Of a stretch of 64,000 nt of DNA, positions 28,007 through 55,965 are shown piece by piece; the stretch's first letter is position 1, and the number at the start of each line of letters is the position of its first letter. The notes under the pieces are model-generated. The model was not told the origin of the DNA. It did not search any database and saw only the letters and a list, made by a program, of their open reading frames with translations. Position numbers and translations under genes: made by a program. Location of the stretch: NCBI GenBank assembly GCA_035519435.1, contig DATIWL010000082.1, forward strand, positions 5,692 to 69,691, written 5' to 3'. The stretch comes from Terriglobales bacterium (GTDB lineage Bacteria; Acidobacteriota; Terriglobia; Terriglobales; Acidobacteriaceae).

Positions 28007-28517
28007 GACGCGTCCTAGGTTGAGTTTAGCAGTGTGGGAGAGCCAGTTTCCTACCCGGAAGTCGTAGTCCTAATTCGGCGTCAGATCACGGGTCGGCAGG
28101 GCTGGCGGTCGCGGTGGGGCCCGCGTCGCACCCAGCCGTTCAGAACGTCTGTTGTCTTGCGGGCTTCTTCGAGCGCCCGATGGGGATCGCGTCCAGTAGC
28201 TTCCCTTGTACCAATACGCCGGCAGACTCTCGAGCACGGAACCTCGCTGAGATTCGGGTCACAGACCGGAGCGGCACGAAAGGACTGGACTACAGGAGAG
28301 GCGCTAATTTTCATCTTAGCGATCGCGGGCCTGTCGCGAAAAAGTCGGCGCAGCACTCACCGCGAGGAATAGAATTTCAGCCAAGAGATTCAGCCGCCGA
28401 GGTGGGCTTATGCTGGATACCTCGATCACCGCCCACTCTTCCCCATCGAAGCTCCGCTCATCCGATGCATTGATCGATCGTGTTTCCGACCTGGGGATTT
28501 CGATTCCAGTTTCCGGG

Positions 28518-29666: not shown

Positions 29667-29690
29667 GGCAGCGACAGAATTGGAGTTCCT

Positions 29691-31286
29691 ATGAATGCGA
29701 AGGTGGGAGTAACGCTGCTCCTGACGGTCCTCTGCGTGGGCGCTTGCCCGAAGCTCGGGGGCGGCTCGCCGGCCGACTCCGAACGCGTGCGGCAGGCAGG
29801 GGTGGCAGGGTCGTTCTATCCCGCCGATCCCAAAGAGCTGGCGGCCATGGTCGACGGATTCGTGGCACAGGCGAAGGTGCCGACGCAGAAGGGGGAAATT
29901 GTCGCACTGATCGCACCTCACGCCGGCTACCCGTTTTCCGGACCGGTCGCCGGCCACAGCTATGCCCTGTTGAAAGGACGGCCGACCCATCGCGTGGTGG
30001 TGATCGCGCCTTCCCATTTCGAGGCGTTCTCGTTCACTTCGGTTTATGGCGGCGACGCGTACATCACTCCGCTCGGGACGGTTCCCGTGGACAAGGAGTT
30101 TGCCCGGAAACTGGTGAAGTTGGATCCGGAAAGCCGGCTCTCCAGCAGCGGCCATATTCCCACCCCGGCGGGCCCGGAGCACGCGCTGGAGGATCAGTTG
30201 CCATTCCTGCAACGAGTGCTGGGAGATTTTCAGCTCGTGCCGGTGGTTATGGGGGACCAGAGCTATGAGGCGAGCCGTGCCCTGGGTGTCGCCCTCGCGC
30301 AATTGATTCGAGGAACAGACACCTTAATCGTTGCCAGCTCCGATCTTTCTCACTACCATCCCTACGATCAGGCAGTCGCCATCGACGGAAAAACACTGAG
30401 TGCGATTGGCCAGTGGGATTACCTCGCCCTGTCTGACAACTTCGCGAGCCGCACGTGGGAAGCCTGTGGGGGCGCTCCGATTGTCGCGGCGATGATCGCG
30501 GCCGAGCGGCTCGGGGCCACGCAGGCGCAGGTGATCAAATACGCGAACTCGGGCGACGTTACCGAGGACCGCACGCGAGTGGTGGGATACAGCTCGGTCG
30601 CGTTCCTCAAGGAGGAAGACTCTCGCGCCGGCGAGATGCCCAGGTTCTCATTGTCGTCTGCTGAGAAACGGCAGTTGCTTGAGATTGCCAGGAAATCAGT
30701 CGAATCGGCCGTCAGGGAACACAAGGGTTATACGCTTCCCGCGAATCTGCCCGCCAGCCTGATGCAGGATCGGGCTGCGTTTGTGACGCTCAAGGAGAAC
30801 GGCGACCTTCGCGGCTGTATCGGACACGTCGTGGCCATGCAACCGCTAGCCGAGACGGTGCGCGATGTGGCGGCCCTGGCGGCGCTGCGCGACCCTCGCT
30901 TTCGCTCGGTGAGTCCAAGCGAATTGCCGCTCCTCACCTATGAAGTCTCTGTGCTGTCTCCGTTGCGCCACGTTGCGAATGTCAATCAGATTAAGGCCGG
31001 CGAACATGGGCTCATGATCGTGAAGGGCTCGGCACGAGGAGTTCTTCTGCCGCAGGTCGCGACCGAACAACACTGGGACCGCAATACCTTGCTCGATGAA
31101 ACGGCGATGAAAGCGGGCTTGCCGGCAAAAGCCTGGCGAGAGAACGACGCCGATCTGTTCATGTTCACGGCCGTGGTCTTTGGGGAGATCGAAACGTCCC
31201 GCGACGTTATGCCGAACGGAATCCCCGTTTGGCCCAACCCACACTCGCGGCCAGAACAGCCGGCACCAGGTTGGCCGCCGCAATAA
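29691..31286 (+). CDS. Fused AmmeMemoRadiSam protein B (MEMO1-like) and protein A (AMMECR1-like) with signal/lipoprotein peptide
   Basis: N-terminal MNAKVGVTLLLTVLCVGAC. Memo pattern AGSFYPADPKEL..ALIAPHAGYPFSG..SSDLSHYH. C-terminal AMMECR1 pattern AAFVTLKENGDLRGCIGH..LRDPRF..L.YEVSVLSP. Confidence 0.85.
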   Translation: MNAKVGVTLLLTVLCVGACPKLGGGSPADSERVRQAGVAGSFYPADPKELAAMVDGFVAQAKVPTQKGEIVALIAPHAGYPFSGPVAGHSYALLKGRPTHRVVVIAPSHFEAFSFTSVYGGDAYITPLGTVPVDKEFARKLVKLDPESRLSSSGHIPTPAGPEHALEDQLPFLQRVLGDFQLVPVVMGDQSYEASRALGVALAQLIRGTDTLIVASSDLSHYHPYDQAVAIDGKTLSAIGQWDYLALSDNFASRTWEACGGAPIVAAMIAAERLGATQAQVIKYANSGDVTEDRTRVVGYSSVAFLKEEDSRAGEMPRFSLSSAEKRQLLEIARKSVESAVREHKGYTLPANLPASLMQDRAAFVTLKENGDLRGCIGHVVAMQPLAETVRDVAALAALRDPRFRSVSPSELPLLTYEVSVLSPLRHVANVNQIKAGEHGLMIVKGSARGVLLPQVATEQHWDRNTLLDETAMKAGLPAKAWRENDADLFMFTAVVFGEIETSRDVMPNGIPVWPNPHSRPEQPAPGWPPQ

Positions 31287-33579
31287 ACACGGCGGCCTTG
31301 AAAAAACCGAACAGCGGAATCAGGAACGCGCTGAGCAGCAGCGCGCCCGCAGACGCGCCGATGAGATCCATTCCATAGAGGATTCCCATGTTCGCCGGGA
31401 GCGATTCTGCCTGCGCGAAAAAAGCCTCGGCTGCCAGCGCAAACTCATAGCCTCCGAGCGCTCCCGCGAGCAAAGCAAGGATGGGAAAAAGAATCGCACT
31501 CGCGAGGACGAGCGCATGCACGCTTCGCACACCTGCGACGGCGCTGAGGAAGCGATAGACCAGGAGCGGCGACAGCGCCACGACAAGTTGGAGGATGGCC
31601 AGGCGTAGCAATGATGCCGCCAGCGTCGCGGCTGGAGATCGGCTGGCCTGCCGCAGGCGGAACCAGTTCCCCAGCGCCATGCCCGACATGAATAGGGCAA
31701 TCAGAATTGCCAGCCGGTGGTAGACATAGCCGTAGATGGCCTGGAACCCGAGCAGGAGCAAGACCTCGAGTCCGATCATCGTCAACCCAGTTAGCGCCGC
31801 GCACAAGACGGCGCTGCCACGAGCCCGGGCAGGAGTTCGCGGCCAGCAAAGAATGGCAATGCCAATCACGGACAGGCCCACGACAGTCCATTCCAGGAGC
31901 GCTCGAAACTGAATTCGTGCAATCGTGCCGAAGACACGCTGATACTCGCGGTTAAACTGCGTACTCCAAAGCTCGACGTCGAAGTAGTACGCGATAGGGG
32001 CCAGATCACGGTTGAGCGGCGTGTCAGGCTGCGGCCGAATGCTTTGTTCAAGATCGGCCACGCGGTCGGGCATCATCCGAAATGGGATGTAGTATTCGCG
32101 CACATAGCTGGTGTTAAGGCGCCGCTGTTGAAGCCGTGAGAGGAGTTCTGCAGAATCTGCCGCGAGAACGCCTGCCCGCTTGGCCGCGTAGAAATGCACG
32201 ATGTCGCCGGGCATCGTCTGGACGACGGGAAATGCCTGCTGGAGCGAATGGAGGATGCAGCGCAGAAAAGCGCTCAGGTCCGGGCTCAGGTACTCCTCCG
32301 CGGCGTGCAACTGAAATGAGAAGACTCCGTCATCGGCAAGTTTGTCGGCTGCCTCGCGGAAGAATTCCACCGTATAGAAGCGGTTCAGCTGGGCGGTCTG
32401 CGGCGTGGGCAGATTGACGATGATTGCATCGTAGGTCAGTGGGCTTGATTTCAGGAACAGCCGCCCATCCGCCGCATGGATATGTACGCGGGGATCTGCG
32501 CGAGCGGCTTGCCATTGCTCGGGGAAGTGCTGGTCAGCCAACTCCAGAACGGTGGGATCGAGTTCGACATAGTCCACGCGTTCGAGGCTGGGATGCTGCA
32601 GGGCCTGCAAAAGTGCTCCACCGGCTCCGCCGCCGATCAGAAAAAGCCTTCTCGGGGCGCGAGCCTCGAGCAGGGCAAAGTGTACGGCTTCCTCGGCGGC
32701 AGCCGGATCGGGTGCATTAAACATCAGCAGGCCATTCTCGAACAGGCTGCGCGTCCCGCCGGTTTCTACGACAGCCAGATTCCCGTACACGGAGTTGCGG
32801 GTGTCGAGCAACTGAAAGCCCGGCCACAGGCGCGAAAAAGAAGCGCCTTCCAGATAGCGGCCTCCCGGCAGACCGGCAACCACCCAGGTGACGAACAGCA
32901 CTATGACCGCAGTCACCTGGCGCGACAATCGCCGCAGAACGAAGGTGGCAGCGGCCGTGACATTGAGGGCGCTCACAAGAAACGCGAACTGCAACGAGTC
33001 GAGAAGACGCAGGAGGAAAACGCTGGCGAGAATACCTCCGAGCGCGGATCCGGCTGCCTCGAGCAGGTACATTGAGTTCACGGCCCGTGCGGTGGAAGTT
33101 CCGGATTGTTGTGCAAGCAGGCGGCTGCCGGCGACGAACGTCCAGCCGGAAATGGCGCAGAAGCAACTCAAGGTGACCAGGCAGGTGACAAGAATCGGAG
33201 CCGGTCCCAGAACCTCACCCGGAAAGGCGTGAAATACGGTGCGGGAGGCGCGTATCGCGAGGACAGTTAGGGGGAGGAAAAAGGCCAGCAGTAGTTGCAG
33301 CACGGCCACGCGCTTCGCCGGGTCCGGCCCCGGCGCTGTTGACCGGCTGAACATGCTGCCCAGCGCCGTCCAGAGAAGCCAAGATGCGAGCATGACTCCC
33401 AGGGAGATTTCGTTGCCATAGGAAACAACCATCAGCTCGCGCAGAAGAATAATCTGGGCAATTGTCGCGGTGAAGCCGACCAGGGCCAGCACGATTGGAA
33501 GTCTCAGGCTCGCGCGGCTGGCCGCCGAGAGTGGTGGGGCGAAACTCACTGCACAGTCATTAGACGTCAACTGCTCCAA
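31207..33579 (-). CDS. Polytopic membrane protein fused to a spermidine-synthase-like (class I MTase fold) domain
   Basis: 790 aa. About 7 TM helices, then the central pattern LFLIGGGAGGALLQALQHPSLERVDYVELDP..DAIIVNLP (aminopropyltransferase-like), then further TM helices. Confidence 0.8.
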   Translation of the reverse strand: MEQLTSNDCAVSFAPPLSAASRASLRLPIVLALVGFTATIAQIILLRELMVVSYGNEISLGVMLASWLLWTALGSMFSRSTAPGPDPAKRVAVLQLLLAFFLPLTVLAIRASRTVFHAFPGEVLGPAPILVTCLVTLSCFCAISGWTFVAGSRLLAQQSGTSTARAVNSMYLLEAAGSALGGILASVFLLRLLDSLQFAFLVSALNVTAAATFVLRRLSRQVTAVIVLFVTWVVAGLPGGRYLEGASFSRLWPGFQLLDTRNSVYGNLAVVETGGTRSLFENGLLMFNAPDPAAAEEAVHFALLEARAPRRLFLIGGGAGGALLQALQHPSLERVDYVELDPTVLELADQHFPEQWQAARADPRVHIHAADGRLFLKSSPLTYDAIIVNLPTPQTAQLNRFYTVEFFREAADKLADDGVFSFQLHAAEEYLSPDLSAFLRCILHSLQQAFPVVQTMPGDIVHFYAAKRAGVLAADSAELLSRLQQRRLNTSYVREYYIPFRMMPDRVADLEQSIRPQPDTPLNRDLAPIAYYFDVELWSTQFNREYQRVFGTIARIQFRALLEWTVVGLSVIGIAILCWPRTPARARGSAVLCAALTGLTMIGLEVLLLLGFQAIYGYVYHRLAILIALFMSGMALGNWFRLRQASRSPAATLAASLLRLAILQLVVALSPLLVYRFLSAVAGVRSVHALVLASAILFPILALLAGALGGYEFALAAEAFFAQAESLPANMGILYGMDLIGASAGALLLSAFLIPLFGFFKAAVFIAAANLVPAVLAASVGWAKRGFRSA

Positions 33580-36184: not shown

Positions 36185-38680
36185 ATGGGTTTCGGGTATT
36201 GGTTCGATACGGCGGAGAATTCCCACCGAGCCGTGTCACGTTGCAATTCGGGACGCTGCTCGAAGTGGATTGGAGCAACCGTGGTTGTCATGTGCCTGGT
36301 ATCGCTGGTTTCGGCCCAGGAGGCATTCACCACCAGCCATGGCAATAACGCCCGAACCTCCGCCAATACCAATGAGGTGTTGCTATCACCCAGCAACCTG
36401 AACAAGACCGACTTCGGCCGCCTCTTCAGTTATCCGCTGGACTATCAGGCCCTGGCGCAGCCTCTGTACGTGCCGAACGTCAATATCCCAGGGAAGGGTA
36501 CGCACAACGTCGTCTATGTTGCGACGATGGCAGATTCGGTCTATGCGTTCGATGCGGAGAGCAATTCGGGACCGAATGCGGAGCCGCTTTGGCACGTCAA
36601 TTTCACCGATCCTGCCCATGGCATCACCACCGCCAGCGGCGCATTCCTGCCTTGCGCGAGTACCGAGGATCGCGGGCCGGGCTTCACGCAGGAAGGTATT
36701 GTGGCCACCCCTGTGATCGATACCACGACCAATACCATGTACGTGGTGGACAAAATCCTCGACAACGGTACGGTCCGGCATCAGTTGCATGCCCTCGATA
36801 TTGGAACCGGGCAGGACAACCCTGGGAGCCCGGTTACGATCAGCGCGACTTCCACCAGCAACGCGGGAAAGGTCGTCACCTTCAATAGCCTTCACCAGAA
36901 GAATCGGCCGGGGTTGCTGTTGGCCAATGGCATCGTCTACCTCGGTTTTGGCTCAAACTTCTGCAACGACGGAAATCATTCGTGGGTACTGGGATATGAC
37001 GCCGCCACCCTGGCGCAAACCGGCGTCTTCAATACCAACCCTGATCACGGTCTTACTTCGATCTGGCAGGCCGGCGGTGGTTTAGCAGGGGACGATGCCG
37101 GCAACATCTATCCGCTGACGTCGGAAGGAAATTACGACGCGGACATCGGCGGACAGGGCTATACCAATAGTGTTCTGAAACTTGGCCCCGATCTGCAACT
37201 GCTCGATTTCTTTATCCCCGGGGCGGTGCAATATCTGAACGACCATGACCTCGATCTCAGCGCCGGTTCGCCGGTCCTTCTGCCCGACATGGACGGACCC
37301 TATCCACACGTAATGGTGGCGAGTGGCAAGCAAGGAATCATTTACGTATTGAATCGCGACAACCTCGGGATGTACTCGCCGAGCGACAGCCAGATCATCC
37401 AGGAACTGGTCGGCGTCATCGGGTCATTTCGGACAGCCCCCGCATACTGGAACGGCCGGCTGTATTACAGCGCGAAGGCCGAGCCGATGAAAGTGTTTTC
37501 GGTTTCCAGCGGGATGCTTTCGCCCGCTCCGATCGCCATGACCTCGCTGCAGCTTACCGGAGCGCATGCGCCGTCGGTCTCATCCAACGGGGACGCTAAT
37601 GGCATTGTGTGGGTTATCCACGGCGGCGATCTCTATGCCTTCGACGCGATCACTTTGAAGATGCTGTACAACACGCATCAGATGGCGCGCGACAATTTGC
37701 CGAAGCTGTCGCACTTCGTGACTCAGACGGTCATCAACGGAAGAGTCTACATCGCCACGCGGACTTCGCTCGAAGTGTACGGCCTCATGCACTATATGAC
37801 TGTAGCGGCGGGCGGAGGCCAGAGTGGGCCTGTGAAGAGCGCGTTGCCCGTGCCGATCCAGGTTAAGGCACTGCAGGCCTACACGAACGTGCCTTATCCC
37901 GGCGTGACGGTTACCTTCAGCGATGGAGGAAAGGGCGGCGCATTCAACCCCGCCTCGGCCGCAACTGACAGCAGCGGCACAGCCACGACTGCGTATACGC
38001 TCCCTCAGAAGGTCGGGACGTTTACCCTGACCGCGTCGGCGACTGGCTTCGGAAATCTCACGACCACGGCAACCGCCATCAGCGGAGCGCCCGCGCAGAT
38101 GACAGCCGCCGCCGGAAATCAACAGTATGGATGGCCTGGTTCCGTACTCCCGGTTCCGCTCACAGCGAGAGTGCTGGACACCTACAAGAACGGCGTGCCG
38201 GGTGTGACGGTCACGTTCGATGACGGAGGCAAGGGCGGATCCTTGACCCCGGTCACCGGCGTCACCGACGCTACGGGAAGAGCGTATGGGTCCTATCAGT
38301 TACCCAATACCGCCGGGAAGATCACGGTCAAGGCCAGCACCACCGGTGTGAAGACGATCAACTTCGCTGAACATGCGGCGGTAGCATCGAGCGTCGTCAC
38401 CGTTTCCGGGAACAGCCAGTCCGGTCCCGCAGGTACGCAGTTGGCCCAGGCACTCGTCGTGAAAGTTGTCGACAATGGTGGCCACGCTGTTTCGGGCGCG
38501 GCTGTGACCTTTGACGATGGCGGAGCTGGAGGGCAGTTCGCGAACAGCAATCCAGTGATCACCGACGCCACAGGAACAGCGTCGAATTTCTATACTCTTC
38601 CTGCAGTCGTGGGTTCCGTCAACATCACCGCCACCGTTGGCGGCGTCAGCCCGGTGGACTTCAGCGAACTGGCACAGTAG
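36185..38680 (+). CDS. Secreted PQQ-like beta-propeller protein with three C-terminal Ig-like repeats
   Basis: Signal-like segment ATVVVMCLVSLVSAQEA. The N-terminal ~530 aa show propeller-like repeats (VVYVATMADSVYAFD, MYVVDK, IVYLGFG, LYAFDA, RVYIAT). The C-terminus has three Ig-like repeats. Confidence 0.7.
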   Translation: MGFGYWFDTAENSHRAVSRCNSGRCSKWIGATVVVMCLVSLVSAQEAFTTSHGNNARTSANTNEVLLSPSNLNKTDFGRLFSYPLDYQALAQPLYVPNVNIPGKGTHNVVYVATMADSVYAFDAESNSGPNAEPLWHVNFTDPAHGITTASGAFLPCASTEDRGPGFTQEGIVATPVIDTTTNTMYVVDKILDNGTVRHQLHALDIGTGQDNPGSPVTISATSTSNAGKVVTFNSLHQKNRPGLLLANGIVYLGFGSNFCNDGNHSWVLGYDAATLAQTGVFNTNPDHGLTSIWQAGGGLAGDDAGNIYPLTSEGNYDADIGGQGYTNSVLKLGPDLQLLDFFIPGAVQYLNDHDLDLSAGSPVLLPDMDGPYPHVMVASGKQGIIYVLNRDNLGMYSPSDSQIIQELVGVIGSFRTAPAYWNGRLYYSAKAEPMKVFSVSSGMLSPAPIAMTSLQLTGAHAPSVSSNGDANGIVWVIHGGDLYAFDAITLKMLYNTHQMARDNLPKLSHFVTQTVINGRVYIATRTSLEVYGLMHYMTVAAGGGQSGPVKSALPVPIQVKALQAYTNVPYPGVTVTFSDGGKGGAFNPASAATDSSGTATTAYTLPQKVGTFTLTASATGFGNLTTTATAISGAPAQMTAAAGNQQYGWPGSVLPVPLTARVLDTYKNGVPGVTVTFDDGGKGGSLTPVTGVTDATGRAYGSYQLPNTAGKITVKASTTGVKTINFAEHAAVASSVVTVSGNSQSGPAGTQLAQALVVKVVDNGGHAVSGAAVTFDDGGAGGQFANSNPVITDATGTASNFYTLPAVVGSVNITATVGGVSPVDFSELAQ
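37796..38677 (+). repeat. Three tandem ~95-aa Ig-like coding repeats
   Basis: Repeat cores are GVTVTFSDGGKGGAFNP..TDSSGTATTAYTLP, GVTVTFDDGGKGGSLTP..TDATGRAYGSYQLP, and GAAVTFDDGGAGGQFAN..TDATGTASNFYTLP. Confidence 0.6.
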
Positions 38681-38837
38681 GAAAGCCTGTCAAACGGGGC
38701 CTCTCTTGCGAGTGGCCCTGTCGACCTTCCGGCTGCAGCCCCGCCATTCGCCCCACGCGATTCTCAGCTCGGTCGCGCTTGGTTGGGCGCGGGTCTAATG
38801 AACCCTATCAATTTCAGGGATGACGCGGCTGTTGAGT

Positions 38838-40418
38838 TCAGCTATTGACGTCTGCCTGGGAGGGTTCGACCACATCCGGAAGCAGCTTGATCTCCACGGA
38901 TTCGGCTTCTTTTTGGGCCACGAGTTCTCCCGTACTGAGAGCCCTGTTTGCCCGGTACGCCCACAGCAGTCCCGCACCATAGACCGCGCCGCCGATGAGC
39001 AACTGCAATCCGAGTTGACGATAGGTATGCGGCACAAACCATTGTTTGAGGAGCAGGAGCGTGGCCACAAGCGGCATCGTGAGCAGGAATGGCAGCGTGT
39101 AGGCTTCGCGCACGTACGTCGTGAGCCGAATTCCCAGGAGCTTGGAGACGTGCCGCGGCATGAAGTAGGTCGTGCTCAAGGCCAGTGGAATTGCGGTGCC
39201 CAAAGCATCGCCGATAATGCCGAGGTAGCGGATGAGCGCGACGCTCAAGATGAGATTGCCAATACCTTCGATCAGTGTGATTTTGGCCCAGGTGTTATGC
39301 CGGGATAAGCCGAACAGCACGCGCCCGGATGCGCTCTGTGACCACCACAAGGTGCAGGAAAGAATCATGATGACCAGCACCGGGTAGCTGACCTCGACGT
39401 ACTTTCTGCCCATCCACACTTCGATGACCGACTTGCCAAGAATCAGTAACGTGGCGCAGATCGGAAAGATAATGAAGGCGCACACCCGGTTCCCGACCAC
39501 GAAGATCTTGCGCAGCCTTGTCACGTCTCCCTTGGCTCCCGATTGAGCTGACATCGGGACAAAGACTTGCGCCAAGGTCGTCACCACCTGCCCGGCATAG
39601 TCCACGATGCGGTTGCCGATGTTGAAATAGGTAATGGCCGCCGCCGACATCATCGTGCCGATCACGATTTCGTCGGTCTTGAACTTCAGGCGCCCCGCGA
39701 CCATGATCATGAAGCTGGAACTGCTGTAGTTGGCGATACGACGGAACGTTCCCTTTTTCACATAATGCAGGCCGATGGGGACGGGACGCAGGTGCAGGGC
39801 GATAAAGGCGCGCAGTATGGCAGCGATCAATGGAAGAATGATGGTGATGAAGGCCACCATCAAAAGGCCGTATCCACGCTTCAAGACAACGACAATCAGG
39901 GCCGCCCGGAGCAACGTGGAAACGATGTTGGTCCAGTTGAGAATGTAGAAGCGTTGTAAGCCCTCAAGAAAACCGCCAAACACGCCGAGCGGGAAACTGA
40001 CGGCGACCGACGCACCCACCATCAGCAGCAGCCAGCGCGCGGTCGGAATCATGTCCAACGGCACCTTCCGGAAGACATGCTCCACGTTGAAACACAGCAC
40101 CAGGGTGACGATCAGGCTGGCCAGACCAATGCAGCTGTAACTGAAGAGGCTCGTATTGACGATCTTGGCCAATTCCTCGTTTTCTTCCGTGGCGGTGTAT
40201 CGGGAAACGTAGTGCACCACGGAAGAACGGATGCCAAGATCAAACAGACCGTAATATCCCGTAACTGAAAAGATGAGAACCCAGACGCCGAAGGCCGTGT
40301 CGCCCAGACGATGAAGGATGAAAGGCGAGAGGAAAATCCCGGTGACGATGTTGATCCCGAGAGAGAACCAGCTCGAGCTGATGTTCTTGATGATCTGACC
40401 TTTTTCGAATTTGCGCAT
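38838..40418 (-). CDS. Wzx-like oligosaccharide/polysaccharide flippase (MOP superfamily)
   Basis: 526 aa with about 12-14 TM helices. N-terminal pattern IKNISSSWFSLGINIVTGIFLSPFILHRLG typical of polysaccharide biosynthesis protein families. Confidence 0.85.
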   Translation of the reverse strand: MRKFEKGQIIKNISSSWFSLGINIVTGIFLSPFILHRLGDTAFGVWVLIFSVTGYYGLFDLGIRSSVVHYVSRYTATEENEELAKIVNTSLFSYSCIGLASLIVTLVLCFNVEHVFRKVPLDMIPTARWLLLMVGASVAVSFPLGVFGGFLEGLQRFYILNWTNIVSTLLRAALIVVVLKRGYGLLMVAFITIILPLIAAILRAFIALHLRPVPIGLHYVKKGTFRRIANYSSSSFMIMVAGRLKFKTDEIVIGTMMSAAAITYFNIGNRIVDYAGQVVTTLAQVFVPMSAQSGAKGDVTRLRKIFVVGNRVCAFIIFPICATLLILGKSVIEVWMGRKYVEVSYPVLVIMILSCTLWWSQSASGRVLFGLSRHNTWAKITLIEGIGNLILSVALIRYLGIIGDALGTAIPLALSTTYFMPRHVSKLLGIRLTTYVREAYTLPFLLTMPLVATLLLLKQWFVPHTYRQLGLQLLIGGAVYGAGLLWAYRANRALSTGELVAQKEAESVEIKLLPDVVEPSQADVNS

Positions 40419-40452
40419 ACTGACCCGAACGACGGGCCGCTCCAGTGGGTTC

Positions 40453-41322
40453 CTAGCGATGTTCCTTCACGAGTTCCGGCGATTCGACTGCCGTGCCGTA
40501 TTCACCTCGGTTGGTTGTCAGCGAATATCCGAGTTCGCGCATCAGCGGGCCCCACGCCGACTCGATTTCAAGCGCCGAACTTGCCGGAAGTTTTTCCTTC
40601 CACAATCCCGAGGACGCGGTTCGGACGAAGGGGATGTCGCTACGCTTGTTTTTCGTCGAGACCCACTGATCGCCCTGATCCGCTTCCAGGCGGCGCATGC
40701 GCTCCGCAGAGCTTCGCTCAATTGCGGTGCGCAAGCGTTCTGGCGTTGCTTCCATGCCGAGGAGACGCGAGATTTTCCCGAGTTCCGCCTCCGTATCCCG
40801 AAGCATGTCTTCATAGCGGAGGAGCAGGAACTGCGGTTGGCTCCCGCGCGTGTACAGCCAACTGGCGACGTTTTCTCCCCATGTCCCCCAGTCTGAAGAG
40901 GACAACCTGCCGGCGACAAAATCGCTCGCAAATGAGGTCAGGGGATAGTCATTTTCGATCTGCCGATATTTGCGCGCGAAATCGTAATACGAGAGGGCTA
41001 CATCACGCGGATCGCGAACGATGTAAATGATCTTGCCATAGCGCGGATCGAAATACTGGTGGCTCTTGATGATGCGCGGCCTCGGAATCCGCTTCACGTA
41101 CCGGCTCGACATCGCCTCGGAGTCAGGGATGAGTTGCTCGATGTTGGCGAAGGTCACCGCTTGGTTAGGATAGACCAGGTTCGCGACCAGGAATCGAGTC
41201 CAAGTGTTCCCCGAACGGGGATAGGAAACGATAAACGTGTCATCGGGAAACACCGCCAGATTTCTGCCGGCGATGTCGGTACCCAGCACGTACTTGATGA
41301 CCCGTTTGAGCCCGTAGATCAT
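40453..41322 (-). CDS. PAPS-dependent sulfotransferase (Sulfotransfer_1-like), paralogue 3
   Basis: SYPRSGNTWTRF (5'-PSB loop), RPRIIKSH, YIVRDPRDV, FVRTASSGLWKEKL (3'-PB-like). The preferred ATG at 41322 overlaps the upstream stop as TGATG. Confidence 0.85.
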   Translation of the reverse strand: MIYGLKRVIKYVLGTDIAGRNLAVFPDDTFIVSYPRSGNTWTRFLVANLVYPNQAVTFANIEQLIPDSEAMSSRYVKRIPRPRIIKSHQYFDPRYGKIIYIVRDPRDVALSYYDFARKYRQIENDYPLTSFASDFVAGRLSSSDWGTWGENVASWLYTRGSQPQFLLLRYEDMLRDTEAELGKISRLLGMEATPERLRTAIERSSAERMRRLEADQGDQWVSTKNKRSDIPFVRTASSGLWKEKLPASSALEIESAWGPLMRELGYSLTTNRGEYGTAVESPELVKEHR

Positions 41323-42182
41323 CAGACCCCGCTCGACACCAGGCTTGAGAACTCCGCCGGCTGTCCGGCAGTCCCCCGGGTCACCAGCTTGTAGCCCAGG
41401 AAGACCATGAGCTGAGGCCAAGCGTCTTCGATTTTTGCCACCAGTGGTTCAGACAAATCCTTTTGCCAGCTGCCGGACTTCGCAGCGCGAACAAAGGATA
41501 AGTCTTTGCGGGAATCCTTGGTCAACCCGCACTCATCGGCCTGCGCTCTTTCCAGTTTCCTCATCCGGTCTGCGGAGCTTCGCTCGACGGCCTTTGCGAT
41601 ACGCTCCGAGTCTGCCTTGATTCCCACAAAGGCGGCGACGCGGCCGAGTTCGCGTTGCGTATCCGCCACCATGTCTTCGTATTTCAGCAACAGGAAGCGC
41701 GGATCGTTATGCCGGGCGGTGAGCCACGTTCCGACGTTTTCTCCCCATGATCCGTGCGGACAGGTGTCGCCGGCCACGAAACGGTCCACGAACTTTTCCA
41801 TCGGATAGCCGTCCTCGATCTTCTTGCATTTCCGATGGTAGTGATATTGGGAAATGACAACGTCACGCGGATCGCGAACGATATACATCACTCGCGGATA
41901 CCGCGGCTCGAAGCACTCGTGGCTCTTGATGATGCGGGGCCTTGCCATCCGCTCCATGTCTCTTTTCGAGGTCCCATAGGGATCCGGTACCAGCTTATGA
42001 ATGTTCTTGAAGCCAACGGGCGCATCGGGGAAAACGAGGTTCGCAATCAGGAAGCGCGTCCATGTGTTGCCCGATTTTGGAAATGAAACCAGAAAGATGT
42101 CGTCAGGCCAAATCTTCAGAGAGCGGCGAGGCTTGTGCAGGCCAAGCAGCATCTTTGAACCACCGATCAGTCGCGAAAACAT
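41322..42182 (-). CDS. PAPS-dependent sulfotransferase (Sulfotransfer_1-like), paralogue 2
   Basis: SFPKSGNTWTRF, RPRIIKSH, YIVRDPRDV, FVRAAKSGSWQKDL. Confidence 0.85.
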   Translation of the reverse strand: MFSRLIGGSKMLLGLHKPRRSLKIWPDDIFLVSFPKSGNTWTRFLIANLVFPDAPVGFKNIHKLVPDPYGTSKRDMERMARPRIIKSHECFEPRYPRVMYIVRDPRDVVISQYHYHRKCKKIEDGYPMEKFVDRFVAGDTCPHGSWGENVGTWLTARHNDPRFLLLKYEDMVADTQRELGRVAAFVGIKADSERIAKAVERSSADRMRKLERAQADECGLTKDSRKDLSFVRAAKSGSWQKDLSEPLVAKIEDAWPQLMVFLGYKLVTRGTAGQPAEFSSLVSSGV

Positions 42183-42241
42183 GTCCCCCCCTCAGTCTAC
42201 GAACTTGCCCAACTATGCGATTACTTCTGCACGCCTCTTTG

Positions 42242-43129
42242 TTATGGGCGTTCTCCAACAAACAATCCCGCATGCTGATCTTCCGGCACGGGCTCCTTAT
42301 CAGCGAGGACGGTCTCGTATCCCAGCCACCGGATCAAGGGCGCCCAGGCTTCGTCAAGCTGGAGGGCATGTTCCTCGGGTAGAGAGGACCGCCATCCGCC
42401 CGCTTTCGCCGCTCTCACGAAGGCAATGTCCTGGCGCGTGTTCTTCGTGGACGAGAATAATTGCGCCTGCGATTTTTCGAGCGTACGCATCCGGTCGGCA
42501 GAACTGCGCTCTACGGCTTGCAGGATTGTCTCCGGTGTGGAGGCGACACCCAGGAAGGCCGCGATCTTTGACAGCTCGCGGGGAGTGTCTTCCACCATAT
42601 CCTCGTACCGCAGCAGCAAAAATCCGGGCCGCCCGTGGCGGGTCGCCAGCCAGCTGGCCACGTGCTCTCCCCAGGACCCGTAGAACGAGGTCTGGCCGGA
42701 GACGAAGCGCCCAACGTATTCCGAGAGCGGGAATTGATCGTCGACCACTTTGCGCTTGCGCTGGAAATGGTATTGCGAAATCACCACATCGCGAGGGTCG
42801 CGGACAATGTAGATCACGCGCGGATAGCGAGGATCGAAATATTGATGGCTTTTCACCACGCGCGGCCGAGGTGTGCGTATCAGATCACGATTGCGCGTCA
42901 CTTCGATGCCGGGGATCATGCGATTGACATTCGAGAAATCAATGTCGGCTTGCGGATGCAACAGGTTGGCAATCAGGAATCGTGCCCAGGTATTCCCTGA
43001 TTTGGGGTAAGAAACGAGAAATGTGTCATCGGGAAAGACGGCGACATTCCGCCCGGGAGCGTGGAACCCCAGGACGCGCTCTGCGCCAACGATGAAACGC
43101 TTCAGCATCGAAGTCTTCTCTGCCCTCAC
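42242..43129 (-). CDS. PAPS-dependent sulfotransferase (Sulfotransfer_1-like), paralogue 1
   Basis: SYPKSGNTWARF, RPRVVKSH, YIVRDPRDV, FVRAAKAGGWRSSL. An alternative start lies at 43108. Confidence 0.85.
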   Translation of the reverse strand: MRAEKTSMLKRFIVGAERVLGFHAPGRNVAVFPDDTFLVSYPKSGNTWARFLIANLLHPQADIDFSNVNRMIPGIEVTRNRDLIRTPRPRVVKSHQYFDPRYPRVIYIVRDPRDVVISQYHFQRKRKVVDDQFPLSEYVGRFVSGQTSFYGSWGEHVASWLATRHGRPGFLLLRYEDMVEDTPRELSKIAAFLGVASTPETILQAVERSSADRMRTLEKSQAQLFSSTKNTRQDIAFVRAAKAGGWRSSLPEEHALQLDEAWAPLIRWLGYETVLADKEPVPEDQHAGLFVGERP

Positions 43130-43139
43130 ATTCTGAAAT

Positions 43140-44132
43140 TCAAGTACGCGCCCACTTCGGTCGCGCGGTTCCGCTGATGAGCCGATTCCAGAACGAAGCC
43201 ATAGTCCGTGTCAGGTTCGGAACGACGCGCAGTCCGAACAGCACCAGGCTGAGTCGCCGCGTCTTCTGGTTGCCGTTGGCTTCCGCAAAGAGTTGGCGCG
43301 CTTTGTCGAATTGTCCTTCACCGAGCCAGCGTTTGCCCTCTTCAATCAAATATCGAGTCCTGATTTCTGCCGCGCGCTTTTCGACCACCTGTCGGTCGGC
43401 ATCGCTCAGCGGCAGCGTACGCTTGAGCTTTTCCAGGATTTCCCAGTAGGCCAGCACCATCTTGGATTTTTCCTGAGACATGGAACCCGGCCGCCCGATG
43501 TAGCAGCAGGCCGAAAGCTTGCGGTTGTACCCGATCTTGGCTCCGTGAAAAGCGGTCCGCACCCACATGTCATAGTCGTCGCAGCGGGGCAGCGTTTCAT
43601 CGAATCCGCCGGCCCGCACAATTGCCTCTTTGCGTGCGACAACCGTTGAAATCGGGATGTGGCACCGCTCTACGACCAAGGTGGCGAACGTCGCCGGCCC
43701 GTTTGACGGGCATTTCTCCATGAAGCGGCCTTCTCGCGCCGGGTCACCGGCAATCAGGCAGTCGCAATAGACGAGTTCGAGAGAAGGATCGTCGGCGAAT
43801 TGCTGCATCTGGGCAGCCAGGTGCTCGGAATACCAGACGTCGTCACTATCCAGAAAAGCGAGGAATTCGCCGCGCGCATGCCGGATCGCCGTGTTCCGTG
43901 CGCCTGCACAGCGCTTGTTCTCCTGCTTGATGTACACGATCCGGTCCAGGTACGGCTGCAGGACTTTTTCCAGTTCCGGCGTGTCGGGTGATCCGTCGTT
44001 GACCACGACGGCCTCGAAGTCCTGGTTGGTCTGCGCCATGAGGGAGTCCAGGCACCGCGCAATGAAATGCGCGGTCTTGTAGCTGGGAATGATCACGCTG
44101 ACTTTCGGCGTTGCATTAGCGGCTACTGGCAT
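43140..44132 (-). CDS. Family 2 glycosyltransferase
   Basis: VSVIIPSYKTAHFIARCLDSL..VVNDGSPD..FLDSDD (DxD) is the typical GT2 N-terminal fold. Confidence 0.9.
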   Translation of the reverse strand: MPVAANATPKVSVIIPSYKTAHFIARCLDSLMAQTNQDFEAVVVNDGSPDTPELEKVLQPYLDRIVYIKQENKRCAGARNTAIRHARGEFLAFLDSDDVWYSEHLAAQMQQFADDPSLELVYCDCLIAGDPAREGRFMEKCPSNGPATFATLVVERCHIPISTVVARKEAIVRAGGFDETLPRCDDYDMWVRTAFHGAKIGYNRKLSACCYIGRPGSMSQEKSKMVLAYWEILEKLKRTLPLSDADRQVVEKRAAEIRTRYLIEEGKRWLGEGQFDKARQLFAEANGNQKTRRLSLVLFGLRVVPNLTRTMASFWNRLISGTARPKWART

Positions 44133-44156
44133 GGTGTTGTTATAGACTCCCTCCGT

Positions 44157-45521
44157 TTACGCACTGTGAAAAACCTGCTCTTGCTCTCCGGCCAGAATGT
44201 TGTTGACGCCTTCCACACCCATCATGACCGAGTGATCCATGTTGCCAATCTCATAGCGCCAGGCGCCGAAACGGCCTCGGGAATAGATGCCTTTCGCGAG
44301 CAAGGCGGGTTGCAGAATATTCAGCGCCTGATCCCGGCCGAGCGTGGGAATCGGATAGGAGTAACCGACAACCCGGTGGTAGCGGGATACGATGCGCTGC
44401 CGATCGCCTTCCTCGATCATGCCGGCGCGGATCAGCCCAGCAGTCATTTTCTCAAACATCTGTTCCGGATCGGGCGTGTCTCCCTCTTTGAACGACATTT
44501 CACACATCAGCGAACTATAGCGATCGGTATTGCCGCCGGGCACGTTGTTCGGAGAATAGTGTGAGAAATACGTCGCGCGGTAACAAGGCATCTCGGCGTC
44601 CGTGAAGTAAATCCAGCAGCGACCAGTTTCGATTTTCTTTTCCAGCCCGATGCCCATCACCATCAGGTTGTTGTGCTCGAGCCCGGCGGACGCGTCTGTC
44701 AGGCGGTTGTCGCCCGGACGGATCATCTTTTGAACCAGCAGGTCGACGGGAGCCGTGGAGATGAGAACGTCGTACGTGTCTCCTGATCCGTCTGCAAAGG
44801 AGATTCGACGGCGTTCAGGATCTACCTCTACGAGTTGCCTCCCCGTCTTCACCTTCCCCGGAAACTGTGCCGCCATGCGGCGATAGATTTCGCCGGTTCC
44901 ACCGTAGAGGGGGAAGCGAAATTTGCTGTTTGGCCCCCAGCCGACGTCGTCGCGCTCGTAGAGGACGTTCTCGAGCAGCCTTTTGAAGTCGACCACTGCC
45001 ACGCGGTCCGCGATCCACGCCTTGGACATTCGCTCCAGCGGCGTCGTCCATACCTTGGAGTTGTACGGGAACATGAAGTGCTCGGCGATGCCTTCGCCGA
45101 AGGTGCCGAGGATCCAGTCGCGAAAGTTAGCCGCTTGCTTGCCGGCTCCGTTGGAAGCTGCCTTGGCCGCGCCGACCAGACACTGGACCTGCACTTCCTT
45201 GGGCAGATAGCGCAAGTTGCTCTGAAAGGGATAGGGAACCCAGTTCCCTTCCTTGACGATCCAGCTTTCGCGGATGCGCTCGTGTACCTCTTTGCCGAGC
45301 ATCTTGTCGATCAGATCATCGAAGTACTTGTAGTGCGAGAAGATTACGTGGCCGCCCTCATCCCAGACGAAACCCTGCTTATCGACGTGCGAACAGGAAT
45401 GTCCGCCAACACCATCGGACTTTTCGTACAACACCCAGTTCTGGTAGCCCAGTTCGTTGAGGCGGTGAGCGGCACCCAGTCCGGTGGGTCCTGCTCCGAT
45501 GATGACGATCTTTTTGTCCAT
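44157..45521 (-). CDS. glf: UDP-galactopyranose mutase, long eukaryote-type form
   Basis: IVIIGAGPTGLGAAHRL, GGHVIFSHYKYFDD, WVPYPFQ, GWGPNSKFRFPLYGGTG, YRATYFSHYSP, SRGRFGAWRYEIGNMDHSVMMGVEGVNNI. These blocks match my recollection of the fungal/trypanosomatid UGM sequence. Confidence 0.75.
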   Translation of the reverse strand: MDKKIVIIGAGPTGLGAAHRLNELGYQNWVLYEKSDGVGGHSCSHVDKQGFVWDEGGHVIFSHYKYFDDLIDKMLGKEVHERIRESWIVKEGNWVPYPFQSNLRYLPKEVQVQCLVGAAKAASNGAGKQAANFRDWILGTFGEGIAEHFMFPYNSKVWTTPLERMSKAWIADRVAVVDFKRLLENVLYERDDVGWGPNSKFRFPLYGGTGEIYRRMAAQFPGKVKTGRQLVEVDPERRRISFADGSGDTYDVLISTAPVDLLVQKMIRPGDNRLTDASAGLEHNNLMVMGIGLEKKIETGRCWIYFTDAEMPCYRATYFSHYSPNNVPGGNTDRYSSLMCEMSFKEGDTPDPEQMFEKMTAGLIRAGMIEEGDRQRIVSRYHRVVGYSYPIPTLGRDQALNILQPALLAKGIYSRGRFGAWRYEIGNMDHSVMMGVEGVNNILAGEQEQVFHSA

Positions 45522-45853
45522 GGCCTTGAAGGAGAACTATGAACCGAAAGGACTTACCCTATCGCAAGCAATCCCACGTCCTTGTGTCAGATCTTAGCAT
45601 CTGCGCCCCCAACAACCTCGTGCCCCAGGTAACTCGGCTGCTCCCCCGAAAGCCTTTGCTGACGCGGATGTTCGGCCTCAACTGGCTTGAAATCCAGCCA
45701 AAAGCCTGCAATCGTCCTACCTTAGGCTGCGGTGGTTCGCCTGTAGTTGACTGGAAAACAAGCATCTTTCGACGCTTGAATGACATGGAGGGATACGGAT
45801 GTGCAAATCCCTTCACCTTTCTGGAACCGTCGTGGATAGATGGGGTTAAGGGT

Positions 45854-46879
45854 TCAGCCTGGCAGGCGCGAACTGGCACCAGTTTGCAGGAACCAGCGTT
45901 CCATCCGCCAGATCCACCCGTCGAAGTCCTTGCCAGCAGGGATACGCTTGAGGCTCAGCGGCTCTTCTCCCGAAAAAACCGGTCCGGTGGTGGTCAGGAC
46001 CGCGGACTTGAATCCTGCTTCGCGAGTGATCTGAAGTGTCCGTTGATTCCAGTGAGGCTCCAGTGCTGGATGGGGATAGGAAAAATGCTGGATGGGCTGA
46101 CCGAGTTTCTCATCGAGACGCTGCTTGCACCCCTGGATTTCGGCCCGCGCATCTACTTCGGTGACGTGAGCAAGATTGGGGTGAGACAACGTGTGCCCTC
46201 CGATCGTGTGACCTGCGTTCTTCAGGGCGCGAACCTGATCCCAATTCATCATCAAACCGCTTTTGCGATCCAGAGGCTCAACCTGGAGAGACTCTTCGAT
46301 CTGGCGAATGAACTGTTCCTGAGCGGCGCCAGCCAGTGCCGCACCCAGGTCCCAGACCACGTTCAGCGCTGCTTTCTTGCCGTCATCGCTGGCGATAGCA
46401 AAGGTCCGGTTGTTCTCGGGATGCTTCCATTCGCGTACCGCCGTCGTATTGAAGGCAAAATTAAGCCGGGCATACCAGGGAGGTGTGCCCGTGTCTACCG
46501 CATTCACCATGATGTAGAACGTTGCCGGAACGCCGTACCGATTCAGGATTGGCGTGGCCACATCATGGTTGTCGGCGAAGCCGTCGTCGAAAGTCACGGC
46601 TGCCGACCGCGGAGGCAAAGGCTTCCCCTCGGCGGCGAACTCTCTGACTTGCTCGATGGTGACGGGATTAAAATGCCGGGCTAACGCGCCGATTTGAGCT
46701 TCAAAACTGGCTCTCGCATGGGAGATGCGAATGGTATTGGCGGTGTCCTGTGGGTTTTCGACTACCGAATGGTAACCAAGGACCAGGACGCGAGGTCTGG
46801 CAAGGCGGGTCGCAGCCCTGAGAATCCCGCTGTTTACGGCCATGCTTTTCAGCCATTGCTTGGGTCTGAATCGAGGCAA
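45854..46879 (-). CDS. Polysaccharide deacetylase (NodB homology) family protein
   Basis: VTFDDGFADN.., GHTIGGHTLSHPNL.. and ..FSYPHP are NodB-domain motifs. Confidence 0.85.
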   Translation of the reverse strand: MPRFRPKQWLKSMAVNSGILRAATRLARPRVLVLGYHSVVENPQDTANTIRISHARASFEAQIGALARHFNPVTIEQVREFAAEGKPLPPRSAAVTFDDGFADNHDVATPILNRYGVPATFYIMVNAVDTGTPPWYARLNFAFNTTAVREWKHPENNRTFAIASDDGKKAALNVVWDLGAALAGAAQEQFIRQIEESLQVEPLDRKSGLMMNWDQVRALKNAGHTIGGHTLSHPNLAHVTEVDARAEIQGCKQRLDEKLGQPIQHFSYPHPALEPHWNQRTLQITREAGFKSAVLTTTGPVFSGEEPLSLKRIPAGKDFDGWIWRMERWFLQTGASSRLPG

Positions 46880-47024
46880 AGATCGCTCCTGCGCGAGGCC
46901 ATCGGGTGACTAGTGTGCCATTGCGGTCGATGAATGATAGCGTATTATGACAGCCACCGACCATGCGCGTAGAAGGCGCGGGTCACCCACCTTGGGGACA
47001 TCAGCTACCAACTGGAGAGATTGA

Positions 47025-47834
47025 ATGAGTTCGGAACAACACGTCCAGGAAGTCAAAGAACAGGTTAACGAGCTGTTCACGAAAACGGTGGACGACTGGG
47101 CGCGCTTTTACGAGGATCCAAAGCCGGCAACCTTGACCGCCCAGAACCTTGTTTCCCGGCGCCGGTTCACGCTGGAGATGGTCGAATCGCGGCTTGCCCC
47201 GGGGTCGAAGATCCTGGATGTCGGATGCGGGACGGGCCACCTGGCCGGAGCCTTAATGCAGCGCGGCTATGACGCCTGGGGTGTGGACTTCTCCGAGGGC
47301 ATGGTGCAGTACGCCGCCGTACACTACCGCGCGGATCGCTTTCAGGTGGGTGATATTGAGCGGATTCCATTCCCGGACAACACGTTTGATGGAATCGTCT
47401 GCCTTGGGGTGATGGAGTACCTGAGCAGCGATGAAAAGGCTCTTCGTGAGATGTGGCGGGTGCTGAAACCGGGTGGCGTAGCCATCATCACGACGCCGAA
47501 CGCCCTCTGCCCCTTCTGGTACTGCGACCGTGGATTGCTGAAAGCGAGAATTCTCGCCCGGCCATTGGTGCGCCTCGTGCGGAGGTCGTTGACCGCGGCA
47601 AAGGATTTGCCGACTGTCACGCACCGCCGATTCTTCCCCGGCCACTGGGCCAAGTTGATGCGCTCCGTAGGACTGAAGACAGAAGAAGTGGTCTGCCACG
47701 CCTGGGGATGGTACAGCCTGGAACGATTCTTTCCCCAGGGAGGTTTCTGCCGCGCAAGTGACCGCTTCGCCCGCAACCGCGCGATCAACTGGTTCGCTTC
47801 GGATCAGCTCTCCTGCGTTCGCGCAATCAAATAG
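47025..47834 (+). CDS. Class I SAM-dependent methyltransferase
   Basis: ILDVGCGTGHLAG (motif I), FDGIVCLGVMEYL, LKPGGVAII. Confidence 0.85.
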   Translation: MSSEQHVQEVKEQVNELFTKTVDDWARFYEDPKPATLTAQNLVSRRRFTLEMVESRLAPGSKILDVGCGTGHLAGALMQRGYDAWGVDFSEGMVQYAAVHYRADRFQVGDIERIPFPDNTFDGIVCLGVMEYLSSDEKALREMWRVLKPGGVAIITTPNALCPFWYCDRGLLKARILARPLVRLVRRSLTAAKDLPTVTHRRFFPGHWAKLMRSVGLKTEEVVCHAWGWYSLERFFPQGGFCRASDRFARNRAINWFASDQLSCVRAIK

Positions 47835-54172: not shown

Positions 54173-54190
54173 AACGGAGACACTCCTCTA

Positions 54191-55594: not shown

Positions 55595-55965
55595 CCTCAG
55601 AACCGTTCATTCCACCCGTTTAGCTGCCTCCCGTTGGGGATGGTAGAGTGGAACTTGCGACTCCATTTCCGAGGGTCGTACCGCATTCTTTTTCACACTT
55701 AACGACGGGTTCGGCTGGAATCTGGTCCGCTCGGGGGCGCGTTGGGGTTTTAGGGTATTGTTGTCAATAACTTACATAACCACGTTCAGCCGCCTACGGA
55801 ATTGGAATTGCTCCTCCTGCCCTGTTACACAGCTTTCGTACGCAGCCAGAGAACATCTGTAGAACGACGCTGGGGTAGAGGATGCCCTTGCAGCCCCGCG
55901 GGGGAGCCCTGGCGGCCGGAGTGATGACAAGCGGAATCGTTTGCTTTCCCAGAAAACAGAGGTAT

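Follow-up and report, generated by a model that had tools for sequence, protein, structure and literature searches.

Gene organization of the sulfotransferase locus

The stretch of DNA analysed here, hereafter the window, comprises 64,000 nucleotides (64 kb) of the Terriglobales bacterium assembly GCA_035519435.1 (Acidobacteriota, Acidobacteriaceae; contig DATIWL010000082.1, positions 5,692 to 69,691 of the forward strand). It carries a minus-strand gene cassette in which three tandem genes for predicted sulfotransferases (STs) dependent on 3'-phosphoadenosine 5'-phosphosulfate (PAPS), designated STa, STb and STc, lie between the genes of a UDP-galactopyranose mutase (UGM) and a family 2 glycosyltransferase (GT2) on one side and that of a Wzx-like flippase on the other. 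The genes of the cassette and its immediate flanks, in window coordinates, are the following.

47025-47834, plus strand: S-adenosylmethionine (SAM)-dependent methyltransferase, divergent, accessory; Methyltransf_11, E 8e-28
45854-46879, minus strand: carbohydrate esterase family 4 (CE4, NodB-type) deacetylase, accessory; PF01522, E 2e-24; 332 nt upstream of UGM
44157-45521, minus strand: UGM, eukaryote-type, 454 amino acids (aa); first gene of the tight operon
43140-44132, minus strand: GT2 glycosyltransferase, non-processive, 330 aa; DSDD and DDYD motifs, no transmembrane (TM) segment; PF00535, E 5e-29
42242-43129, minus strand: STa, sulfotransferase paralogue 1; GTG start at 43129 (295 aa) or ATG start at 43108 (288 aa)
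41322-42182, minus strand: STb, sulfotransferase paralogue 2, 286 aa
40453-41322, minus strand: STc, sulfotransferase paralogue 3, 289 aa; start codon ATG shared in part with the stop codon of STb
38838-40418, minus strand: Wzx-like flippase/exporter of the multidrug/oligosaccharidyl-lipid/polysaccharide (MOP) family, 526 aa; ten or more hydrophobic segments; follows STc after 34 nt

UGM, GT2, STa, STb, STc and the Wzx-like flippase form, in that order, a tight six-gene operon, because the successive intergenic gaps are only 24 (UGM to GT2), 31 (GT2 to STa), 59 (STa to STb), −1 (STb to STc) and 34 nt (STc to Wzx). An initial annotation, made from the sequence letters and their open reading frames (ORFs), had reported here three consecutive minus-strand ORFs sharing roughly half of their residues. 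The three ORFs were indeed present at 40453-43129, with a pairwise identity of 49-52%, and the four motifs quoted for them, S(Y/F)P(K/R)SGNTW, RPR(I/V)(I/V)KSH, YIVRDPRDV and FVR(A/T)A..G.W, were each recovered in STa, STb and STc. The families named for the flanking genes (MOP, GT2, UGM, CE4/NodB deacetylase and divergent SAM methyltransferase) were recovered as well. The annotation had further described the triad as translationally coupled. The sequence TGATG at 41320-41324, in which the stop codon of STb shares 1 nt with the start codon of STc, was exactly as described, and this overlap alone implies strict translational coupling for that one pair; coupling did not hold for STa and STb, which are 59 nt apart and do not overlap. 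Gene callers place the STa start at the ATG at 43108 on identical public contigs. Over 38000-47200, promoter and terminator consensus sequences were matched less often than in shuffled sequence.

Sequence and predicted structure of the sulfotransferases

Profile searches matched all three proteins end to end to Sulfotransfer_1 (PF00685), with E-values of 4e-42 for STa, 2e-41 for STb and 8e-36 for STc. The three scores (124, 142 and 145 bits) exceeded the gathering cut-off, which is 22 bits, and profile positions 1 to 247-254 of 255 were covered. Of the two profile searches that the initial annotation had proposed, that with PF13469 was matched by a further, fourth sulfotransferase in the window, which is described below. 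No NCBIfam model matched STa, STb, STc or the fourth ST, and homologues of the STs are labelled 'sulfotransferase domain-containing protein' at NCBI.

The best relatives with solved structures in the PDB were animal cytosolic SULTs (SULT1C2, E 8e-24), followed by Teg12, Teg14 and StaL, the best match of STb being human SULT1C2 with that E-value. In the SULT1C2 alignment, PKSGNTW of the 5'-phosphosulfate-binding (PSB) loop stands over PKAGTTW, the catalytic His (KSH) over KTH, and the segment with the 3'-phosphate Arg and Ser, VRDPRDVVIS, over ARNPKDNMVS; the Tyr of YEDM and the C-terminal Arg...G.W are also kept. An AlphaFold2 (AF2) model of STb, the only ST modelled, had a predicted local distance difference test (pLDDT) value of 81.5 and a predicted template modelling (pTM) score of 0.81. 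Its top Foldseek match was human SULT1E1 with bound PAPS (TM score 0.69), and the top 50 matches were all SULT-family proteins (one annotated as retinol dehydratase), with TM scores of 0.62-0.70.

Eighty genome loci were compared by tblastn, ORFs were clustered without supervision over 42 of the related loci, and a neighbour-joining (NJ) tree was built from 80 STs drawn from related loci. The PAPS-binding and catalytic positions are kept in 74-80 of these 80 family members, with the catalytic His present in 79/80 and the 3'-phosphate Arg and Ser in 80/80 each. Within the C-terminal RKGxxGxW motif, the Arg is found in 74/80 and the two residues of G.W in 77/80 and 80/80, K-G being replaced by A/T-A. 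The PSB loop reads PKSGNTW in STa and STb and PRSGNTW in STc, where Arg takes the place of the catalytic Lys at residue 36. This Arg is common to all 20 members of the STc clade and is therefore a clade trait and not a sign of decay. By profile coverage and alignment, STa, STb and STc each represent the full-length Sulfotransfer_1 family and keep their PAPS-binding and catalytic residues intact. The motif-based assignment of the initial annotation to PAPS-dependent Sulfotransfer_1 enzymes is thus backed by profile search, residue conservation and predicted fold; it had named missing PAPS-binding residues as grounds against itself, and these residues were found to be kept in the alignment, together with a SULT fold predicted for STb.

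In the NJ tree, STa, STb and STc fall into three separate clades, each with orthologues from other genomes. A fourth ST clade occupies the third position in some genomes, and the STb clade is the sole one retained in single-ST cassettes. The three clades have 71 conserved positions in common, and a further 12 are constant within each clade yet different between clades; among these 12 are the residue at +2 from the catalytic His and a position in the loop that precedes helix 146-157. This pattern fits enzymes specialised in regiospecificity or acceptor, and not recent redundant duplicates. The genes do adjoin, are similar in size and about 50% identical, and STc has Arg for the PSB-loop Lys, as might be seen if they were recent, functionally redundant tandem duplicates serving gene dosage, or partly decayed copies. 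We hold that explanation to be extremely improbable, since each copy clusters with orthologues elsewhere and not with its neighbours, all PAPS-binding and catalytic residues are retained, the Lys-to-Arg exchange is fixed in its whole 20-member clade and 12 clade-specific positions exist. Because the three clades are old and orthologous, the STs are not recent duplicates, and recent duplication or redundancy was rejected on the basis of the tree.

UGM, GT2 and the Wzx-like flippase

At 44157-45521, the initial annotation was correct in its UGM call and more accurate than the public labels. The protein is 44% identical over its full length to the Trypanosoma cruzi UGM (PDB 4dsg; phmmer E 1e-114, BLASTP E 5e-126) and matches the Aspergillus fumigatus UGM with an E-value of 1e-104. 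The blocks GGHVIFSHY and YSRGRFGAWRYE.GN.DHS are conserved with respect to T. cruzi UGM, and from the UGM literature we take them to be the His-loop and the C-terminal substrate-binding block. The model of classical bacterial Glf, TIGR00031, gave only 25 bits, and Pfam returned generic amine-oxidase models only. Public data contain thousands of homologues of this UGM under the names 'protoporphyrinogen oxidase' or 'FAD-dependent oxidoreductase', and this looks like systematic mis-annotation. A literature search on eukaryote-type UGMs in bacteria gave nothing helpful.

The GT2 has its best PDB match in the GT2 domain of the chondroitin synthase KfoC, and its nearest named families (TuaG, EpsD/E, PglI, WcaA and KfoC) act on lipid-linked oligosaccharides or glycosaminoglycan-like polymers. 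UGM lies immediately upstream of GT2 in 15 of 17 evaluable loci, and because of this tight gene pairing the GT2 is a probable galactofuranosyltransferase. The Wzx-like protein matched Polysacc_synt and Polysacc_synt_3 of Pfam above the cut-off and MatE marginally, and scored 43 bits on the NCBIfam model WZX_like, whose cut-off is 300. In one related locus (L017), a 75% identical copy of the methyltransferase sits together with a deacetylase between UGM and GT2. All pathway enzymes are devoid of signal peptides and TM segments and the Wzx-like protein is polytopic; this absence of signals in the enzymes fits modification before flipping.

A PAPS-supply island with a second sulfation set

At 10-17 kb from the cassette, on the plus strand (52979-60320), lies an island that carries a second sulfation set beside the genes for PAPS supply.

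52979-54172, plus strand: fourth sulfotransferase, of another family (Sulfotransfer_3); PF13469, E 2e-25; in 10/42 related loci
54191-55594, plus strand: PaaK-like adenylating enzyme, within the PAPS island
55882-57735, plus strand: bifunctional ATP sulfurylase/APS kinase (PAPS synthase, PAPSS; a Sat-CysC fusion); PUA_2, ATP-sulfurylase and APS_kinase domains
57776-58546, plus strand: TauE/SafE-family anion permease; PF01925, E 9e-46; always after PAPSS in relatives
58655-59464, plus strand: CysQ-like 3'(2'),5'-bisphosphate nucleotidase, for removal of 3'-phosphoadenosine 5'-phosphate (PAP); Inositol_P, E 2e-48; after TauE in relatives
59535-60320, plus strand: second CE4 deacetylase (DAC2), 261 aa, no signal peptide; PF01522, E 1e-28; beside CysQ in 10/42 loci

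The PAPSS scored 927 bits on NF004040 (cut-off 669), with translation probably starting at 55966 or 55978. For the CysQ-like protein, the best NCBIfam model was TIGR01331 (CysQ) with 142 bits, below the cut-off of 229. The TauE permease is a putative transporter of sulfate or sulfite. Both the island and its fourth sulfotransferase had been overlooked by the initial annotation; with the cassette and the island taken together, the window thus encodes four sulfotransferases, PAPS synthesis and PAP removal.

The genes between cassette and island are housekeeping genes (RibA-like, DUF2520, NUDIX, CSD and PolX). In nine related loci (L014, L015, L017, L022, L025, L026, L036, L037 and L044), PAPSS-TauE-CysQ, often with DAC2 and the gene of a He_PIG-domain protein, adjoins the cassette, and in L012 TauE and CysQ stand just upstream of Wzx and the STs. 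Since the island abuts the cassette directly in about 10 related loci from Terriglobales metagenome-assembled genomes (MAGs), the two probably constitute one functional unit. Their separation in the window is a lineage-specific insertion, common to L006 and L007. Linked PAPSS and CysQ genes also give indirect support to PAPS-dependent sulfuryl transfer by the predicted STs.

Recurrence of the cassette in related genomes

The initial annotation had proposed a survey of gene neighbourhoods across Acidobacteriota, and the cassette proved to recur widely in Terriglobales. UGM-GT2-ST(1-3)-Wzx was found at 55-85% identity across dozens of Terriglobales/Acidobacteriaceae MAGs, with one ST (UGM-GT2-STb) in L025, L026, L033, L044 and L045, two in loci such as L014, L015, L018 and L021, and three in the window, L005-L009, L011, L017, L020, L022, L024 and L030. 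ORF clustering gave the following recurrent families.

ST: 42/42 loci
GT2: 26/42 loci
Wzx: 23/42 loci
UGM: 19/42 loci
PAPSS, CysQ and He_PIG protein: 13/42 loci each
Big_1 protein, TauE and phospholipase C (PLC)-like phosphoesterase: 11/42 loci each
Sulfotransfer_3 and DAC2: 10/42 loci each

Homologues of the STs number thousands in metagenomes, and the named hosts of ST and UGM homologues are MAGs only. A distant variant, L036 (329-18348), has two nonribosomal peptide synthetase (NRPS) genes with the domain orders C-A-T and C-A-T-TE and a phosphopantetheinyl transferase (PPTase) gene, then GT2, one ST, a MocA-type oxidoreductase, an epimerase/dehydratase, Wzx and PAPSS-TauE-CysQ, and it has no UGM. 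Tandem arrays far larger than the triad, with nine to ten consecutive Sulfotransfer_1-like genes of ~280 aa, were seen in proteobacterial MAGs (L056 325-7997, L065 3979-11650 and L071 4026-12486, the last labelled Rhodospirillaceae).

The occurrence of GT2-ST-Wzx-PAPSS behind two NRPS genes and a PPTase in L036, together with Teg12, Teg14 and StaL among the PDB relatives of the STs, the marginal MatE match of the exporter and the PaaK-like adenylating enzyme in the PAPS island, could suggest a secreted small molecule or natural product. GT2 would then glycosylate an aglycone, the STs would sulfate it in the manner of StaL and Teg12-14, and the MOP/MATE-like protein would export it. However, neither the window nor the conserved neighbourhood of the UGM-type cassettes holds scaffold-building NRPS, PKS or terpene genes, the NRPS adjacency is confined to L036, a distant locus with a GT2 of no more than 37% identity, and among exporter types the polysaccharide-type MOP proteins give the best score. 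We therefore regard a natural product as improbable, and as a weaker rival than the glycolipid discussed below.

Proposed pathway

We propose that the locus encodes a cytoplasmic-face tailoring pathway for a multiply sulfated, galactofuranose (Galf)-bearing envelope glycan that is subsequently flipped, a reading to which we give a probability of roughly 0.55. It is built on the enzyme families, the intact PAPS-binding and catalytic residues and the operon structure, and on the cytoplasmic location of the enzymes, the linkage to the PAPS module and the age and orthology of the paralogues, all obtained computationally. From these we infer Galf as the transferred sugar, a lipid-linked acceptor, separate regiospecificities of the STs and the order of the steps.

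In the proposed pathway, UGM would convert UDP-galactopyranose into UDP-Galf, and the soluble GT2 would add Galf to an acceptor synthesized elsewhere, for which an undecaprenyl-diphosphate-linked oligosaccharide is the likeliest candidate. With PAPS as donor, STa, STb and STc would sulfate three different hydroxyls or residues, one each, and in some lineages, including that of the window, the CE4 deacetylase and the SAM methyltransferase would modify the unit further. The strongly anionic product would then be flipped to the periplasmic face by the Wzx-like MOP protein. PAPS would be provided by the dedicated Sat-CysC fusion and PAP cleared by the CysQ-like phosphatase, and the TauE permease probably handles a sulfur oxyanion. 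The initial annotation had already placed sulfation before flipping, and its reading is strengthened by the PAPSS-CysQ-TauE module and by enzymes that have neither signal peptides nor TM segments. A bolder version, in which a self-contained module (UGM, GT2, one to three regiospecific STs, a MOP flippase and private PAPSS, CysQ and TauE) caps a surface glycan or lipid with per-sulfated Galf, is in our view doubtful.

Secreted neighbours and other genes of the window

Two genes for secreted proteins with immunoglobulin (Ig)-like domains recur beside the cassette, one in the PAPS-supply island and one convergent with Wzx.

60622-63285, plus strand: secreted He_PIG Ig-domain protein; 13/42 loci; C-terminal domain of ~550 aa at 61645-63285
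36185-38680, plus strand: secreted Big_1 protein, 831 aa, three Big_1 domains; convergent with Wzx; N-terminal hydrophobic segment

The C-terminal domain of the He_PIG protein matched no Pfam family (searched to E <= 1), and a PDB sequence search with the protein gave nothing useful. The domain has 3106 homologues in the search database, the top matches being 60-74% identical and the few named ones belonging to Terriglobales or other Acidobacteria. Its AF2 model, with a pLDDT of 65, resembled only right-handed β-helix polysaccharide lyases and tailspike depolymerases in Foldseek (PL9 and PL6 lyases, chondroitinase B and RbmB; TM scores 0.35-0.47). A lyase-like β-helix fold gives a fold-level hint at an anionic polymer as product, and in the proposed pathway this secreted protein may cut or process the finished polymer. 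The Big_1 protein lies beside the cassette in 11/42 loci, in either orientation; it had no match in a PDB sequence search, and its N-terminal ~500 aa gave only a sub-threshold hint of a PQQ propeller (Pfam, E <= 1).

The recurrence of both Ig-domain proteins raises the alternative that the flipped unit is transferred to them as a sulfated protein O-glycan. Halobacterium S-layer glycans, which are sulfated on their lipid carrier and contain Galf, offer a parallel. Nevertheless, the window has no oligosaccharyltransferase and no O-antigen-ligase-like polytopic protein, and the He_PIG C-terminus resembles an enzyme of β-helix lyase fold and not a substrate. We consider this alternative highly improbable, somewhat more so than a natural product.

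A secreted phosphoesterase of the PLC/acid-phosphatase family (PF04185; 34464-35864, plus strand) is found near the cassette in 11/42 loci, a recurrence that may reflect synteny or a functional link. The minus-strand ORF at 31207-33579 encodes a 790 aa protein whose spermine/spermidine synthase domain is flanked by ~14 hydrophobic segments; besides this protein and the Wzx-like flippase, no large polytopic membrane protein is encoded near the cassette. At 28410-31286 on the plus strand, a radical SAM gene precedes that of a Memo-AMMECR1 fusion; the two resemble a pair of the AmmeMemoRadiSam type and are unrelated to the sulfation locus.

Weighing of the proposed pathway

Several observations count against a sulfated envelope glycan. 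In the 64 kb window, the large ORFs gave no Pfam match to a priming phosphoglycosyl transferase, to Wzy, or to a polysaccharide copolymerase (PCP) or outer membrane polysaccharide export (OPX) protein, and no primer, polymerase or export family is among the recurrent neighbours of the 42 loci. A hydrophobicity scan of all window ORFs of at least 150 aa gave three polytopic membrane ORFs, none of them Wzy- or O-antigen-ligase-like. The statement of the initial annotation that no priming transferase, Wzy or Wza/Wzc is encoded in the window accordingly stood in both scans, and the priming transferase, Wzy and PCP/OPX may be encoded elsewhere in the genome. The locus has a single glycosyltransferase, and the only argument for Galf specificity of this GT2 is its gene pairing with UGM. 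The STs are nearest to cytosolic small-molecule SULTs and to Teg12/StaL, not to known carbohydrate sulfotransferases; the five single-ST loci (UGM-GT2-STb) have no Wzx within 10 kb; and confidence in the β-helix model is low (pLDDT 65, TM score < 0.5). In addition, the homologous loci are all from MAGs, and no reported chemistry was found for any of their hosts.

What makes a sulfated Galf-lipid the main rival is the single GT, the absence of priming transferase, Wzy, PCP and OPX from the window and the conserved neighbourhood alike, and the occurrence of minimal UGM-GT2-one-ST cassettes without Wzx. GT2 would attach one Galf residue to a membrane lipid, such as a hopanoid, a lipid of diacylglycerol type or some other lipid of Acidobacteria, the STs would sulfate the head group up to three times and the MOP protein would bring the product to the outer leaflet, so that primer, polymerase and exporter would be unneeded. 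The resemblance of the STs to SULTs with lipophilic acceptors agrees with this, as do the SULT-like glycolipid sulfotransferase of Mycobacterium tuberculosis and the sulfated glycolipids of haloarchaea. Yet the GT2 matches no known glycolipid synthase, its nearest families acting on lipid-linked oligosaccharides and polymers, and the recurrent CE4 deacetylases and the secreted lyase-like β-helix protein suit a polymer better. We know of no sulfated lipid from Acidobacteria either. A glycolipid is thus conceivable but unlikely, and a sulfated, Galf-bearing envelope glycan remains our preferred reading.

Significance

Rhizobial and some marine bacterial glycans are sulfated. The statement that bacterial sulfated polysaccharides are known from cyanobacteria only, as made in PMC8205485 and PMC13390465, is for this reason too strong. 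A literature search found no paper linking sulfotransferases to acidobacterial glycans, and the genes described here predict a sulfated cell-surface sugar for a phylum from which none has been described. Acidic soils and peat are dominated by Terriglobales. If the prediction is correct, their strongly anionic surface material could there affect metal binding, water retention, acid tolerance and interactions with phages and predators, and would be relevant to where the ester-sulfate of soil organic sulfur comes from. Were the version with per-sulfated Galf correct, its product would be the first sulfated glycoconjugate to be described from Acidobacteria and could be a microbial source of sulfate esters in acidic peat and soil organic matter. 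The analysis also corrects the public labelling of a UGM as protoporphyrinogen oxidase, and the cassette offers a compact gene set for the heterologous production of sulfated sugars.

Comparison with known systems

In its logic the locus comes closest to the synechan (xss) cluster of Synechocystis PCC 6803, in which sulfotransferases are encoded within a Wzx/Wzy exopolysaccharide cluster (PMC8205485). As in the locus described here, several STs stand in a glycan cluster with Wzx, and sulfation is presumed to take place on the lipid-linked unit before flipping (PMC8205485). The xss cluster differs in having eight glycosyltransferases, Wzy, PCP, regulators and two STs of different subfamilies, and no PAPS synthase is among its genes as listed in that account (PMC8205485). 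In contrast, the acidobacterial locus, from a different phylum, has one GT2, UGM, one to three paralogous Sulfotransfer_1 STs and a PAPSS/CysQ/TauE module, and lacks polymerase and export genes.

The Nod-factor toolkit (NodC, NodB, NodS, NodH and NodPQ) is also close. Both combine a GT2, a CE4 deacetylase, a SAM methyltransferase and a PAPS-dependent ST, and both have a dedicated ATP sulfurylase/APS kinase followed by export, the PAPS-forming enzyme being linked here too. However, the GT2 of the window is non-processive and soluble and scored 36 bits on TIGR04242 (NodC), over the N-terminus only and against a cut-off of 550. Its exporter is a MOP protein and not the NodIJ ABC transporter, UGM is present, and the STs are SULT-like in the comparison with PDB structures. 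No NodA-like acyltransferase gene was seen in Pfam scans of the window ORFs.

At the level of single enzymes, the STs share with SULT1/SULT2, Teg12, Teg14 and StaL the Pfam family, the fold, the PSB loop, the catalytic His and the 3'-phosphate residues. They differ from SULTs in an identity of only ~22-25% and in the C-terminal RKG, which reads R-A/T-A, and they stand in a glycan-assembly context, whereas SULTs, Teg proteins and StaL serve xenobiotic or antibiotic tailoring. The UGM likewise resembles the eukaryotic enzymes of T. cruzi and A. fumigatus (44% identity over the full length, His-loop and C-terminal blocks kept) but comes from a bacterial host, and it is distinct from classical bacterial Glf. 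All parts of the locus are therefore from known families. As a whole, it lacks the defining features of the synechan and Nod-factor systems; it works like both and belongs to neither.

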